A stretch of DNA of 64,000 nucleotides from Callorhinchus milii (Eukaryota). This document shows, piece by piece, positions 45,107-52,873 of the stretch. The notes beneath the pieces are model-generated. The model made no database searches, was not told the DNA's origin, and was given only the letters and a program-made list of their open reading frames with translations. The stretch spans positions 30,194,001 to 30,258,000 of the forward strand of contig NW_024704747.1 of the NCBI RefSeq assembly GCF_018977255.1, given 5' to 3'. The position numbers and the translations under genes were made by a program. The first letter of the stretch is position 1. Each line of letters opens with the position of its first letter.

Positions 45107-47899
45107 TTCAGGGAGTTTATCTGGATTGGTACTGTAGGAAGAGGCTAAGCATTAGCTACTGTGACACCTGTACCTGACATCATGTTGGATGACAACAAAT
45201 ATCCAAAGGAACCCAATTCATATCATTTTTAATATTCCTACCAAGTGTCACACGTACTGATTTGAAGACATTCTGCTATTTTTTTCCCCCTTTTTGGGGA
45301 TTGAAGTGAGAGGCTTGCTCTGCAAGTTACTCAAGTAACTTTACAAAGGCCATACATAGTGTTCCCATAGGAAGACCTCCAGTGCTTCCAGATCAATTTG
45401 TTTTAAACAGGGTAAGTGCGTGGCCTGAAGGGCACATGTGAAACTGTGCAGGAGAGGAGAAAGGGGCTGATTCAGCCGACACCTCAGAGCAGCTGAGTCC
45501 CAAACGGATTCTCCTGATAAAGGTCAATGGATTTACAATTGCTACCTATGTTCGCAGTCCCAGATTCCATCAACCAATGTTTTTATTTCCGACTTGAACT
45601 TTAATGGAAGTTGACCTGTGGACTCATTTGGTTGAGGTCTGCTTTTCCTTGGTATCAGTCTTGTTCGTTTAAACCTAATCATTCCAAATAGGATTTTGAT
45701 CGTAGTTCGTGTGCATCTGCCTCTCACACTTAATTTAACTAAAGCTGTTGTCACCTTTAAATCATGGCAGTAGGAGAACAATAATAATAATCCTTACATT
45801 TGATAAAGTGCTTCACAGAATACACCGTAAAGTGAATTGACTGAATATTTTGTGGATGAAACACGGCAGCCAATCATGCACAACAGCGTCCCGCAAACGG
45901 TTGTTGTGACCAAATTTTATTCTTTTGGAAAGGGATTATTACCGCGGAAAAGTGATCCGCCAATCGACTAACAATCGGGTTCCTATGCTAGACTTACTCT
46001 AAACTCAAGCTTTAAGTGGATGATGCTTTCCCTGAAATGTACAAACAAATTTCTGATATGCCGAATCTGTCCGTCCTTTTTATAAAGCTGAGATTTGCAT
46101 CATGGGAGCATCTGTTCCCAGTTTAATTTGATAGGATCATAAATGCTGTAGTTAAAGCCAGATTTGTGGTCTGAAATTGAACTTGCGACTAATCCTGTGA
46201 ATCATACTCTTCATAACGGGAACAGTGTCCAAAATGACCTATTTGACCAGTGAGTGGAGAAGAAATATACGTGATCACAACCAGCTACCACCTTTGGATA
46301 GTTTCAAACAGATGAAATCTTTAACATTATCCGCATTTGACTGCATTTTATGGATTGTTTCGCCCACAAAACACACAGTGAATCCACTTTACAGTGTATC
46401 CTGTGAAGCGCTTTGAGACGTCTCAACGACGTGATGAGGCGCTGTATCAAATGCCAGGATTATTATTATTATATTTTATTGCATTTTATATATGGATTGC
46501 GCAGTTAGTATTAGGTGGTAATGCAGTGAAATGCTAAATGGATGGTAGCTGTGAATTACATGTTAGAAATGGTGGAAAGCTATTAATAGTGAGTGGTTAA
46601 TCTTCTGTCCACAATCACACTGCAGTAATAGTACTATAGATTTCAGGTTTCCAGATGGTGATTTTGCTGGTTTTGGTTGGGGGAAAAAAAATCTCCTTTT
46701 GTTACAGAAAATGACTTCTAATCATGTGTGTTGTTTCAGCTAGGCATGAGTGCAAATTCAGGTCAGTCAGCAATCTCAGCTAATCCGAACTCCGTTGAAT
46801 ATGATCGAGCTGGGTCAAACCTAGTTATACCTGGTTCAACCCCTGATACATTTTAAGTAGAGTGGAATTCATACATTTTCTGGCTGCAAATTCACTGCAG
46901 GCAAAGCTTGTGGTAGTATATCACCTGTCACAAACTTGCCCCTATTGTTAATTCAGGCACATTGGAGTCTACAGGGAGTCCCGTAGCTTCGTGGTTACTG
47001 AGCGACTGGTTGTTAGTCGATTGGCGGATTGCTTTGCCGGGGATAATAATCCCTTAAAAAATAATAATAATAATAATTTGGTCACTTCAATCCAACACTG
47101 TTTGCGGGACCTGTGCTGTGCACAATTGGCTGCCGCGTTTCGCCCACAAAATATACAGTCAATTCACTTTATGGTATAATCTGTGAAGCATCTCGAAGAC
47201 ATGATAAGACACTATATCAAATGTGAGGATTAGTATTATTAGATCAATCAGTGCAAAATAGAAAAGCAAGACATTTAAATAAAAAGATAAATATCATTCA
47301 TAAAATGGCTTTTTAAACTCATCCTATTTAAACAGTGAATGAGATCTTGGGATCATTTGAAATAATGTATTAAACTCCCTTTGATACCTGCATAAGGGAT
47401 TTTATTTTCGATGGGGAAAGCTTGCGTTTAAGTTAAATATTTTTACAGTATAAGTTAAGCTTTTTAAGAAGGGTCTGTGTGGCTTTGTGAATAATTGCAC
47501 ACGGTGACCCAGACATTGTGCTATCCACAGGGCAAAGGNTTTTTGAAGGTCTAGTCTAATTGCTTAGTCCCAGGGCTTTGCGAAACATCATCTCACCCCT
47601 GGAAGTGAATACAGTAGTTTAACATTTAATAAAGCCTTGGCTGGAGCCACTGACGCCTGATTGATTTTCATTCATTCAGCAAATTAATTCTGTATCACTC
47701 GCATTCATTCTTTTCTGTGATTCTTCCCCCATGCCAGAGAATAACCCTGGGTAAGACAATCTCAACAACAACAAGGCTGAGTGTCAGTGGACTCTATGGG
47801 AACCTCTATGACTAACCAAGGGCAGGGCGAGGGAGAGACAGTCTGAGCAGGGGGTATGTCTTAGGTGGGGCTAAGATCCTCCAACAAACTTTATCTAAT

Positions 47900-47988
47900 A
47901 TAAACACAGAAGTCACTGGGAACACGCAGCATCCATGGAGAGAGGAAAATGAGTTAACGTTTCAGGTCTATGACCTGTCGTCAGAACT
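47900..47988 (-). mobile_element. Tiny Penelope-type insertion with TSD
   Basis: TTTATCTAAT duplicated at 47890-47899 and 47989-47998; homologous to 52741-52830; carries a hammerhead motif. Confidence 0.7.
47952..47988 (-). ncRNA. Minimal type I hammerhead ribozyme motif
   Basis: Minus strand AGUU-CUGACGA-C-AGGUC(AUA)GACCU-GAA-ACGU-U-AACU: stem I, conserved core, stem II, palindromic stem III, predicted cleavage after GUU. Confidence 0.75.
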
Positions 47989-48024
47989 TTTATCTAATCA
48001 TGACCTAACCTCTCGGAGATTGTT

Positions 48025-48482
48025 GTTAATAATAATAATAATCCTTGCATTTGATACAGCGCCTTATCACGTCTTCGAGATGTCTCAAAGCGCTTCACAG
48101 AATATACTGTAAAGTGTAGTGACTGTGTATTTTGTGGGTGAAATGCAGCAGCCAATTGCGCACAGCAGTGTCTGTCCCACAAACAATCACGGAGCAAGTG
48201 ACTGATTTTATTTAGGGGATTGTTGGCCAGGGATAGGATACCGGGAGAAATTCTCCTTTTGAATAATGTGGCGGGATCTTTATCTTCCACCTGAACAGGC
48301 AGACAGGACCTTGGTGTAACGTCTCATCTGAAGGACGGCACCTCCGACAATGCAACTCCACCCCCTGTTCCACCAGCAAAGTATTGAAGTGTCAGCTTAG
48401 ACAATGTGATTCCAAGTCCCTGCTTGGGGGCTTGACCCTACAACCTTCTGACTCAAGAGAAGAGAGTTCCCCCAGGCTGACA
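48025..48482 (-). mobile_element. Near full-length DeuSINE (SacSINE1-like head and Deu core, shared tail)
   Basis: Minus strand GTCAGCC...GAGTCAGAAGGTTGTAGGGTCAAG...GCTGACACT...GGAGGTGCCGTCCTTCAGATGAGACGTTACACCAAGGTCCTGTCTGCCTGTTCAGGTGG...AATTGGCTGC...GCAAGGATTATT. Confidence 0.82.
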
Positions 48483-51071
48483 CACAGATGGAAATGTGAT
48501 AAATTCAGGTACCCTCCAAGAAGAGGGNAAAAAAAGAACATTGAGGATTCTACCATGCACTGATGGCTAAACATAGCAATATTTTTCATTATCTCTTCAT
48601 GCAATTGGAGATGATGTGGTGAAAGTGTTGTTATAGAGCAATCCGATTATCTGACAAAGGGCATCTCAATTAGACAAAGCTCTATTTTTCTCCTGTTACT
48701 CAGTGAAGCAGGAAAAGTGGTACGTAGCAACTTAGAACAAGTCCTATTGTAGCTCTCACAGAATCCAAATCATTTCTGGTGGAGAAACTTGTCAATCCAC
48801 AGAGACCCTGGAAAATGTCAGATTCTGCTTCCACTAACCTGAGTCATGTCAGCCATAAAATCTGGAACTCTCTCCCTCCCCCAAAAGGCTGTGGATTATG
48901 GCTGGATCCTTTCCAATTTTCAAGACTGAGGTGGATAGCTATTTGTTAGGTCAGGGTATCAAGGGATATAATAATAACCCTTGCATTTGACACAGCGCCT
49001 TACCATGTCTTTGAGACGTCTCAAAGCACTTCACAGAATATGCCGTAAAGTGACCGTGTATTTTGTGGGCAAAGTTCTGGGAGAATGTGCTGAACGTAGG
49101 AGTGTGAAGCCTCCTTTCATTATTAACTGAGAACCAATGGTACATTAAAGAAAGCCAAATTAGAAAACAAGCCAAACTTCAGAAGGTTTTTTTTCAGTAA
49201 TTGAGATGTTCTCTCGAGAAACTCAACAACCCGAGTCAACCTCATCTATTTTGGGGTTTGGTGTCACAATGATCCCCTAAATTAATCCCTAAAAAAGCTC
49301 AAGTGCATTTTTGGAGACTGCAGATATAACTGAGATGGTTACAAGAGTGTCTGTTCACCATAACAAATTGGAGAATGTCACAGTGCAAACTCCTTATGGT
49401 TTAAGTTCCTCTCATGCATGTAAACAAAGGCAAATGACTGTGTTTTCTTAAGGAATGTGTTTGCTCTGGAGGGCTGGGGATTGACTGTCTGAGAGAGACT
49501 CATTAAAGTGCTCTTCCTTTAATAATTGATAATGGAAATAAACCCTAATGAAATTTCCATCTTCCAGACACGTGAACTGTTCCTGATATTACTCTGTGTT
49601 TGCTAATAGAATGACAGAGCAAGCTTAGTTTGGTTGCAGCTTTACTTAAAGTCTTTTCTGNTTTTTTTATCCGATTCATTTGGGAGCCCAATGGATATAT
49701 ATTATACATATTTGGTTTACGGCAGAAGAGGCTGACAACATCACCAAAATCCTCTCTGCTGGAGCTGTCCCACAGAAACAGATTTTCCAAAAGTGCCATC
49801 TTGCAGTAAGATTATAATAATAATAATCCCTTGTAATTGAAACAGCGCCTTATCATGTCTTCGAGACGTCTCAAAACGCTTCACAGGATATACTGTAAAG
49901 TGAATTGACTGTATTTTGTGGATGAAGAATAGCAGCCAATTGCAATCCGCCAATCGACTACATGGAGCAATACGGCGGAAGTAATACCAATTAACATAAA
50001 AGCAGTTTCAAAATCTGTTCCATGTTGTGGTTCCATAAATGCAGAGATTCCTATATTCCAAGGAAAATCACAAAGGAAGACAAAGGAACAAATGAGGTGG
50101 AGGGCAGTAAATGGTGAGATCAGAGGTGATCATGGTGCAGGGCAAAAGGCAATAAATAGTGGGAGATTATAGAAAGAAAAGATGTGTGATTGGTTATAGA
50201 AGAAGGGGAGGGGAGAGGCAAGGCTGAGAGAAGATAGGAGCTGAAACATCATAGTAATCTTTTTAAATGAATAATAAGCTTCCTCAAAGTGCTTTTCTAA
50301 AAGGTATATCCTCAAGCTAAATCAGGTAAGAACATTAAGGTCCACTTTTGGTACCCAGTGTCAGTACGACAGCTCTAATTATTATTTAATCAACACGCAT
50401 GCAATATATAATAACCCATAGCATTTGATACAGCAACTTATGACGTTGAAATGTCAAAGGACCTCACACAGCATTTTTTTATTCCTGTATAATTTAGTGA
50501 CTGTATTTGTAACCCACACAGCAGCCAATTTGTTCACAGCAATGTTCACAACCAGGAATAAAGTGAATAGCTATATGTTTTTAATCTAAGCAATTATTGT
50601 CCTGTCAGGACACAGGAAAACCTTCCTGTGTATAAGTTTACATTGTATTCTCAAAGTTTACTGCAGTTGTCTTTTCAGCAATGCAGACAGGCCACGTATT
50701 AATTATTCAAATATGTGTGTGGTATATCAGCTTCCAGATTGATAAAGTATTGTTTGAGATGTGTCTGATTAGGTTCCCCCTCCCCTTCCCACCCCATCCA
50801 CCTCCCTTTCTTGGAAATCGACAACAACAACTACTTGTATTATATAGCACCCCGCCACAGGGTAGTGTCCCAGAGTGCTCAATCTACCTAAACCTTCAGA
50901 CACAAAACCTCTCATTGAAATCTCCATCTGACAGCAGCGAAGAAACCTGCTTTGGGGGTTGAAAACCACTTTCTAAAGAAAGTCAACCTACTTTAGAAAA
51001 AACGTATAATAATAATATACTAACCCTATTATTATTAAATAAGATATATTATTATTATTACGTATACATAC

Positions 51072-51406: not shown

Positions 51407-52740
51407 ATGACCTGAGAGGGGGAAAATCAAGCTTTGTGTGGGTGCAGGTTTTCAACCATTATTTACCATTTACCTTCAAGGAAACACTACCCAGTGATGT
51501 ACAAAAAAGACTGTTTCATGGTTAGCTAAATGCATGCTGTGAAACAAATGGCCGGGCTTTGTTTAACATTGTTTTGCAACTGTTTAGCAGATTAAACACA
51601 AAAGATTTACAAGAATTAATTGTATATGAAATTACTGTAACCCAGCTAATGAATTGAAATCCATTAAATTGTCATTTTGTACAATGTAGAAAAGATATAT
51701 TAACACAGGCAAGAAATTGGCCTTAAAAATGGTGCTATTTTACACTACATGCAGTGGTGTAAGCATGAAATCAATTGCTATAATTATTCACTGCCTACAG
51801 CGTTTTTCTCAGAAATATGACATGATCCTAAAGCCTGACATCGTTCTTCATTGTGCATTTAAGTCAGCTTGAAAGATGAACTCGCTTGCATTTAAAATGA
51901 TATTTCAATCGTTCAGTTACAAATACAATCTCCTGCTTTGTGCTACTCTCTGTTCCTCTGCCGTGAATGAATCCAGCTTAAAATAACGCAGTATTGAAAA
52001 GGCTTAAACAATGGTATTTTGAGGATGTAAGTACTGAAAATACCCATCATTGCTTTCCTATTTTGTAAATTGAATGATAGGTAGTTTTTGTGGTTTTATC
52101 TTTTATGCCATTTTTATAGACACCGTGAACAGAGAACAAACTGCAGAAAGATATTGAAGTAAAACACAGTGAGCTAAATATGAATACAGCATTTTCTGTG
52201 CCAGAGAGGAAGAAATCTGTTNAAAAAAAGCCTTCTTTTATCAACCTCCCTCTTTGAAGTCATTACCTCTGCTGCCTTACAATGCTATGATATCAAATGT
52301 TTCAGCTTGCCTCTGTTAGTAGCATTCTTGCATCTGCTTCAGACATTTGTGGGTTCAATAATAATCCTTACATTTGATATAGCACCTTGTCATGTCATTA
52401 AGATACAGTACTGACTTGACTGTATATTTTGTGGACGAAATTCGGCAGCCAATTGTGCACAGCAGTGTCCCACAAATAGTCGAGGATTGAGTCACCAAAT
52501 TTTTTTTGAAAGGTTATTGTAATATAATAATATAACCAGAAAAGCGATCCGCCAATCGACTAACAACCGGATTCCTATTTACTGCCAGGTAAACAGAGGC
52601 GAAACTTGCCCAACATTTTGCTACAATATTTATATGGGCATCTTTCATTTCAGGAGGATGCATCTCAAAATGTTTCACACAGCTAACTGGGAGACTGAGC
52701 TCTCCCTGACTGTGGGGGGAGAGCAAGGAGGTGGCCAAAA

Positions 52741-52873
52741 ACACAGAGAGAGCTGGGAAAACTCAGCAGGTCAGGCAGCATCTATGGAGAAAGGAAAGTG
52801 AGTCAAGGTTTCGGGTCCACGACCCTTCGAAACAACTTGTTTCAGATTCCAGCATCTGCAGTATTTTGTGTTT
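52741..52873. mobile_element. Mini Penelope-type insertion with inverted ends and truncated hammerhead
   Basis: TGGCCAAAA duplicated at 52732-52740 and 52874-52882; left arm matches the 47900 element; right arm CCAGCATCTGCAGTATTTTGTGTTT is an inverted version of the left terminus. Confidence 0.65.

Follow-up and report, generated by a model that had tools for sequence, protein, structure and literature searches.

An 89-bp hammerhead-bearing insert in intron 2 of Callorhinchus milii KCNH7 and the recurrent ends of its Penelope-like element family

Intron 2 of the KCNH7 gene in Callorhinchus milii carries a short insert whose edge falls at the start of a hammerhead ribozyme motif, which raises three connected questions: from what kind of element the insert derives, how so short a copy came to begin where it does, and whether it does anything where it lies. 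The window considered here is the whole 64,000-nucleotide stretch analysed (assembly GCF_018977255.1, contig NW_024704747.1, positions 30,194,001 to 30,258,000), to which all coordinates refer; element positions are counted on the minus strand from the A of AGUU at 47988, taken as +1, so that the hammerhead spans +1 to +37. Direct reading of the sequence confirms an 89-bp insert at 47900-47988, minus strand, between perfect duplications of a 10-bp target site (TSDs), just as the original prediction had it. Its further description of the insert as mostly hammerhead fails, the motif making up 37 of the 89 nucleotides (42%), while its placing of the insert edge at the first base of stem I agrees with the letters as read but is ambiguous by a few bases at this single locus because of microhomology at both junctions. 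In element orientation, the 3′ TSD copy opens with ATTAGAT, seven nucleotides similar to those with which the element continues (AYYAGAT), a microhomology at the putative priming site, and at the 5′ junction the target runs on as (A)GTT, the same as the element's first bases. The features of the insert are these:

47890-47899, plus strand: TSD copy at the element's 3′ end, TTTATCTAAT
47900-47988, minus strand: 89-bp pseudo-LTR piece of a Penelope-like element (PLE), almost certainly so by origin; family +1 to +101, with 12 nt deleted internally and the 35-nt tail absent
47926-47932, minus strand: site of the 12-nt deletion, at a short direct repeat, common to five other insertions
47989-47998, plus strand: TSD copy at the element's 5′ end, TTTATCTAAT, 10/10 identical
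47952-47988, minus strand: minimal type I hammerhead motif, with the anatomy described in PMC4209133
47988-47985 with 47955-47952, minus strand: stem I
47984-47978, minus strand: CUGACGA box
47977, minus strand: bulged C between A9 and 10.1, predicted to pair with G12
47976-47964, minus strand: stem II, 5 bp
47963-47960, minus strand: GAAA box
47960-47957, minus strand: palindromic ACGU
between 47956 and 47955, minus strand: predicted cut (after +33)

The window copy lacks 12 nt that are present in most family members, and the five other insertions bearing the deletion were retrieved with the window copy itself as query. Contigs from four other individuals of one study contain the insertion; no empty site was seen among these four, whose contigs, of a kind that drops rare variants, run from the left flank into the insert, none of them spanning it whole.

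The complete minimal type I core that had been proposed is borne out letter by letter. From 47988 to 47952 the minus strand reads, in succession, AGUU, CUGACGA, C, AGGUC-AUA-GACCU, GAAA, CGU, U and AACU, and thereby has the CUGANGA and GAAA boxes, the bulge before stem II, the palindromic 15.2-16.2 and the NUH site of minimal hammerheads. A scan with Rfam covariance models, the check originally suggested, gave no hammerhead match at E ≤ 10 or at the gathering score, so that the identification draws on motif anatomy and literature. The lone strand is predicted to fold into an inactive hairpin, and stem I, of 4 bp, is absent from the predicted monomer fold in two of the three copies tested; the active dimer, as predicted for three natural copies, is 10-19 kcal/mol less favourable than the dimer MFE, with the largest gap in the window copy. 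Cleavage of PLE hammerheads as dimers is credited to Lunse et al. in a review (PMC6765202). Set against one natural copy (L042), the hammerhead of the window copy differs only at the bulged base, which is C rather than A; of 161 distinct segments within five mismatches of the core, 154 have A at this position and 3 have C. Its predicted probability of pairing with G12 is 1.00 in the window copy versus 0.00 in L042, which supports the earlier suggestion that the extra C pairs with the G of GAAA. The same A-to-C substitution is reported to be strongly detrimental in the CChMVd hammerhead (review PMC3705267). As modelled, the C at the bulge likely traps the catalytic G12 with loss of activity, a loss put no higher than likely because a lamprey PLE family has C at the same bulge place (PMC4209133 supplement). 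The core is otherwise intact in the window copy, with both CpGs retained.

The gene around the insert, and two further fragments of the same element, map as follows:

14952-15027, plus strand: KCNH7 exon 1, coding part (context)
18671-18901 (ends approximate), plus strand: KCNH7 exon 2, PAS domain (context)
50077-50243, minus strand: upstream pseudo-LTR (pLTR) fragment from this element, lacking the hammerhead, 73% to a natural long copy (L071)
52739-52860, minus strand: second copy, of an older subfamily (stem II with a G-C closing pair; 5′ part of the core missing), plus a short inverted tail piece

Exon 2 finds its best match in the PAS domain of human KCNH7 (PDB 6y7q, E 1.5e-46, versus 1.3e-39 for KCNH2), and the next KCNH7 coding exon was found about 11.5 kb beyond the window end (L127). 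With exon 2 inside the window and the next coding exon past its end, the insert lies in intron 2, antisense to the gene mapped on the plus strand, as had been claimed. Both extra fragments (50077-50243 and 52739-52860) also lie in intron 2, antisense to KCNH7; overall, four of the five element fragments in KCNH7 are antisense (p=0.19, from five fragments in one gene). Being antisense and single, the insert would not cut KCNH7 pre-mRNA, and it is probably a neutral, dead copy with no sign of function in KCNH7. Several other repeats surround it. The insert is bracketed by two inverted SINE copies (47114-47241 and 48030-48167), 84-87% complementary and separated by about 0.8-0.9 kb, which could pair into a long duplex in KCNH7 pre-mRNA. 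About 30 bp separate the insert from an abundant SINE's AT-rich tail (47999-48040), and many copies of the insert's family lie in or beside the same SINE. Matches to tRNA models occur at 11 places in the window, most likely as heads of tRNA-derived SINEs.

As to origin, the insert is almost certainly of PLE descent and appears to be a pLTR piece of a Neptune-type element. The Penelope origin proposed for it, as a short pLTR piece, is upheld by longer copies that join it to an ORF with RT and GIY-YIG. Copies extending upstream have a pyrimidine-rich pLTR part, preceded by an ORF end with GIY-YIG, RT thumb and YIDD motifs; one contiguous run (L094) holds an N-terminal region, DKG, RT, linker, endonuclease, pLTR, hammerhead and tail; and in L228 the pLTR, hammerhead and tail read into the 5′ end of the ORF, with an apparent ATG at +169. 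Partial-tandem pLTRs occur in L228 and L095. The endonuclease piece shares 61% identity with a stingray protein and 47% with a protein carrying RVT_1 and GIY-YIG, and the Pfam GIY-YIG match on a broken copy (L067) is weak (E 0.012). A CX4CXXC linker before the endonuclease is intact in eight element-derived frames, degraded or absent in seven others (two of these being repeat fetches of the same loci), and found also in a stingray relative (P0001). Since a CX2-5CxxC linker is a mark of Neptune/Nematis (PMC8557442), the linker points to an element of that type. The family is old, because the ORF copies seen are all broken and 70-90% alike.

A Pfam GIY-YIG search of the genome returned two matches, which were rejected as this family's ORF: they are a different PLE-like ORF, in which a loose hammerhead-core pattern is unmatched. 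This second PLE-like family, with RT and GIY-YIG, was observed at L061:1579-2981 (a 401-aa open frame) and L062:1456-2900. Splice-acceptor-like signals were noted at two places on the sense strand of the element studied here. One, at +30 to +59 (window 47959-47930, minus strand), consists of TTAAC, a pyrimidine tract and an AG before an ATG at +57; the AG is lost in the subfamily of the window copy. In the other, at about +140 to +170 (L207, L228, L229, L237), a pyrimidine tract is followed by YAG and GAATG ahead of the apparent ORF start at +169. The ATG at +57 opens a short upstream frame in L228, and no donor for the acceptor-like signals was identified.

How large is the family, and is its ribozyme maintained? 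A 91-mer search of the genome gave 2125 first-look candidates, of which 40 were scored. In its family form, the core is matched exactly 161 times in the genome, a reversed control not once, and a 23-nt motif (+79 to +101) 855 times, its reversed control again not once, both counts being lower bounds; that the hammerhead-bearing family is not due to chance follows from the 161 core matches against the empty control. The same family is abundant in sequencing runs of three other organism labels. The expectation of a dispersed, high-copy family is supported by these counts. The closing pair of stem II (10.1-11.1) is A-U in 135 of 161 segments, the window copy included, and G-C in 12 of 161, the latter limited to the older subfamily. 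One compensatory change (A-U/G-C at 10.1-11.1) and a U-A/U-G change at 2.1-1.1 were found, and because the two co-occur in 12/12 G-C segments the stem covariation amounts to about one lineage event. In 36 copies picked by the 3′ motif alone, changed cells numbered 17/282 in the core versus 74/1279 downstream (p=0.89), with 41/143 at CpG positions; no selection on the hammerhead core after insertion was found in this comparison of core and downstream sequence, and since the two rates are alike, inserted copies decay neutrally. Every stem II subtype (A-U with an ATA, ATC or ATT loop; G-C) occurs in both short and long copies. The idea of a distinct family of "mini ribozyme elements" is not supported by these results, given that the subtypes are shared with long copies, that long copies enter the PLE ORF and that the core is unselected. 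Near-identical flanks mark local segmental duplications carrying the element (L117/L119, L021/L023, L171/L174, L232-L234, L227/L230/L236).

The ends of the copies are the most informative about how they arose, and were surveyed in copies chosen by the 3′ motif alone, so that the sample is unbiased at the 5′ end. Thirty loci and 60 further regions were drawn from the first 100 listed places of the 23-nt-motif matches; dropping four loci that repeat a neighbour and two segmental duplicates left 84 loci with 91 segments, all within the first 84 Mb of one contig (C1). Among the 40 non-inverted segments, 22 start at -3 to +7, 5 at +8 to +29, none at +30 to +38, 10 at +39 to +79 and 3 upstream of -10, a loss per base of 0.159 within -3 to +7 versus 0.006 (p 7e-19, for an interval set after the data had been viewed). 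Counted by locus, 52 of 84 start at -3 to +7 and 4 of 84 extend beyond -10; the exact segment starts are 7 at -1, 9 at +1, 6 at +2 and 7 at +3. Ends at the ribozyme cut site were considered and rejected, with none in the 40 simple copies and 2 in the 91 segments. In sequencing runs, heterogeneous loose ends stack at 47987/47988 in 8/8 runs of four organism labels with an agreement of 0.35-0.42, and of this only the low agreement is informative, because the pile sits at the query's own element end. An AT-rich hexamer at about -29 (TTATAA or TTAAAA, a weak TATA match) is kept in long copies of both stem II subfamilies, and the Inr-like CCA(+1)GTTC lets long copies of both subfamilies match YYANWYY at +1. 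These two signals are to be seen beside the established spacing of TATA and the YYANWYY (Inr) consensus. As a test for a cap G, a G precedes AGTT in 16 of 51 segments; 11 of the 16 are TG, which stem I fold-back could explain, and the remainder gives p=0.26. The ORF is joined directly to about +1 in two copies (L238, L240); other ORF-to-pLTR joins (L241, L215) fall at -16 and further upstream rather than at +1, which counts against a start-site reading of these ends. A published report of 5′ ends clustering at a pLTR start was not found in the literature searched, which comprised open papers, most subscription papers and Repbase/Dfam lying outside it.

At the other end of the copies there are two modes, near +101, where the window copy belongs, and near +135. 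Inverted structures are common (45 of 84 loci flagged, 40 of 84 by a stricter rule), and 35 of the 40 head-to-head inverted inserts have one arm near +101 and the other near +135, the remainder comprising one with two short arms, none with two long arms and four intermediate. One-each pairing thus holds in 35 of 36 clear cases, versus 44% if the arms were independent (p 1e-11). TSDs of at least 6 nt (6-14 nt) flank 11 of 39 non-inverted copies versus 57 of 1482 swapped-flank controls, and TSDs of at least 9 nt flank 7 of 39 versus 16 of 1482 (p ~1e-6); those of at least 10 nt are 81% A+T (65/80 nt).

We lean towards the view, somewhat better than even as a whole mechanism and based on sequence patterns, that the short copies are abortive cDNAs, primed internally and extended as far as the 5′ end of an uncut RNA. 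Transcription would start at about +1, the first base of hammerhead stem I; the GIY-YIG endonuclease would nick AT-rich DNA, with RT priming at an internal site, +101 or about +135, as the biochemistry of an Anolis PLE suggests; and in the window copy RT would have primed inside the RNA at +101 and copied back to the RNA 5′ end. Since the whole hammerhead is retained in the window copy and none of the simple copies begins at the cut site, the template was presumably uncut, and a later A-to-C change may then have trapped G12 in the window copy. Directly observed are tandem copies in which this pLTR precedes the ORF, the position of the hammerhead 29 nt behind the AT-rich hexamer and on the Inr-like site, and the 10-bp TSD. 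The joins of ORF to +1 in L238 and L240 fit a jump from an RNA end, and the +101 and +135 modes fit two internal RT starts bounding a 30-40 nt tail (PMC11167929). The TATA plus Inr of Adineta pLTRs (PMC3846280) offers a precedent, and the TATA-less, internal promoter of D. virilis Penelope (PMC2377424) counts against the start-site reading. A more detailed version, held tentatively, would make the short copies the PLE counterpart of retroviral strong-stop DNA: RT would start near the 5′ end of a capped, uncut RNA, the two cut target ends would be primed as a fixed pair, one at +135 and one at +101, full-length copies would depend on a strand jump or on a circular template, and the main service of the palindromic hammerhead would lie in pairing two RNAs for a protein dimer, not in cutting the template.

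Among competing accounts, the one with most weight, though doubtful, keeps the PLE origin and sees in the short copies ordinary 5′-truncated products of a long transcript whose 3′ pLTR was the place of priming, with RT stopping at +1 through fold-back of the cDNA on the complement of stem I or a stall at the C-rich tract just upstream. A TG before AGTT in 11 of 51 segments is what stem I fold-back predicts, short microhomologies occur at many inverted junctions, 5′ truncation is general in PLEs (PMC8557442) and 3 of 40 simple copies pass the wall at +1. Yet stem I has only 4 bp and does not form in two of the three monomer folds predicted, a structured template should arrest RT at the 3′ foot of the structure (+37), a point at which none of the simple copies ends, and the copies that pass -10 continue for hundreds of bases. 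It is much less probable that a separate non-autonomous ribozyme mini-element, retrozyme or SINE-like, was mobilised by a PLE from a master gene of its own. Short copies do far outnumber long ones (4 of 84 loci reach beyond -10) and have true TSDs, and monomers of PLE-derived retrozymes have been described (bioRxiv 10.64898/2026.07.22.740005); but collinearity with the autonomous pLTR speaks against it, as does the lack of any head-to-tail array of the short unit among the loci fetched, the window copy being a solo insert with a TSD, and a separate master is unlikely because short and long copies alike occur in each stem II subtype.

A wall at +1 would also result from splicing at a CAG/TT acceptor-like site lying just ahead of the core, and a pyrimidine tract and CAG do precede the core, as an intron of D. 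virilis ends at the 5′ end of helix I (PMC4209133); since the AG and the preceding C are often kept, as the exact starts from -1 to +3 given above attest, and the flanks share no upstream exon, we consider this very improbable. Least credible of all is a working role for the window copy as a regulatory ribozyme, be it for KCNH7 or for an antisense transcript. To its credit are the otherwise intact core with both CpGs and the presence of the insertion in the four other individuals; against it are the antisense, single state of the insert, the bulged C predicted to trap G12, the neutral decay of the family and an insert flank that contigs of organisms B, C and D leave uncovered at 80%.

The hammerhead is a new member of a described motif class, since solo minimal hammerheads from truncated PLEs are already known, and the new interest lies in the end patterns of the family. 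Cervera and De la Pena (2014, PMC4209133) attributed thousands of solo minimal hammerheads in fish, coelacanth and frog to truncated PLEs; a search of supplement file 2 of that paper found no shark or chimaera term. As in those ribozymes, the motif here is of type I, with a short helix I, a single unpaired base separating 9 from 10.1, a palindromic 15.2-16.2 and a helix III without a loop, whereas the main subfamily closes its 5-bp stem II with A-U instead of the usual G10.1-C11.1. In Poseidon PAc of Anolis carolinensis (Frangieh et al., 2024, PMC11167929), the protein nicks AT-rich DNA on both strands, uses uncut RNA as template and primes at two internal RNA sites bounding the tail. The present family resembles PAc in its two fixed 3′ ends about 35 nt apart (the tail), its AT-rich targets, a hammerhead near the element's 5′ region and, as we propose, uncut RNA as template. 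It differs in the CX4CXXC linker, of Neptune/Nematis type, and in an apparent ORF ATG at about +169, downstream of both putative priming sites, whereas the PAc ORF starts in stem II with priming 111-118 nt into the ORF. With the Neptune-clade EN+ PLEs of Craig et al. (2021, PMC8557442) it shares a C-terminal GIY-YIG, the CX2-5CxxC linker, partial tandems, inverted 5′-truncated copies, an optional 30-40 nt tail and the frequent presence of that tail at one end only, the last a trait already described there; this likeness is drawn from linker and motifs in ORF copies that are all broken. The type I hammerhead, the relation to PLEs and the dispersed monomers recall non-LTR retrozymes (bioRxiv 10.64898/2026.07.22.740005), which differ in forming tandem arrays of at least two hammerhead units, the insert here being a solo piece.

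The single insert, then, matters little, being ordinary genomic debris of a described motif. The family is of wider interest as a natural record of PLE integration. Should the 5′ wall be a transcription start, then the RNA start and the two priming sites would be mapped to the base by hundreds to thousands of copies, and the ribozyme-cut linear RNA would not be used as a template, which would narrow the role of the hammerhead. The coupled ends at +101 and +135 offer a concrete prediction for in vitro work on the PLE protein dimer.
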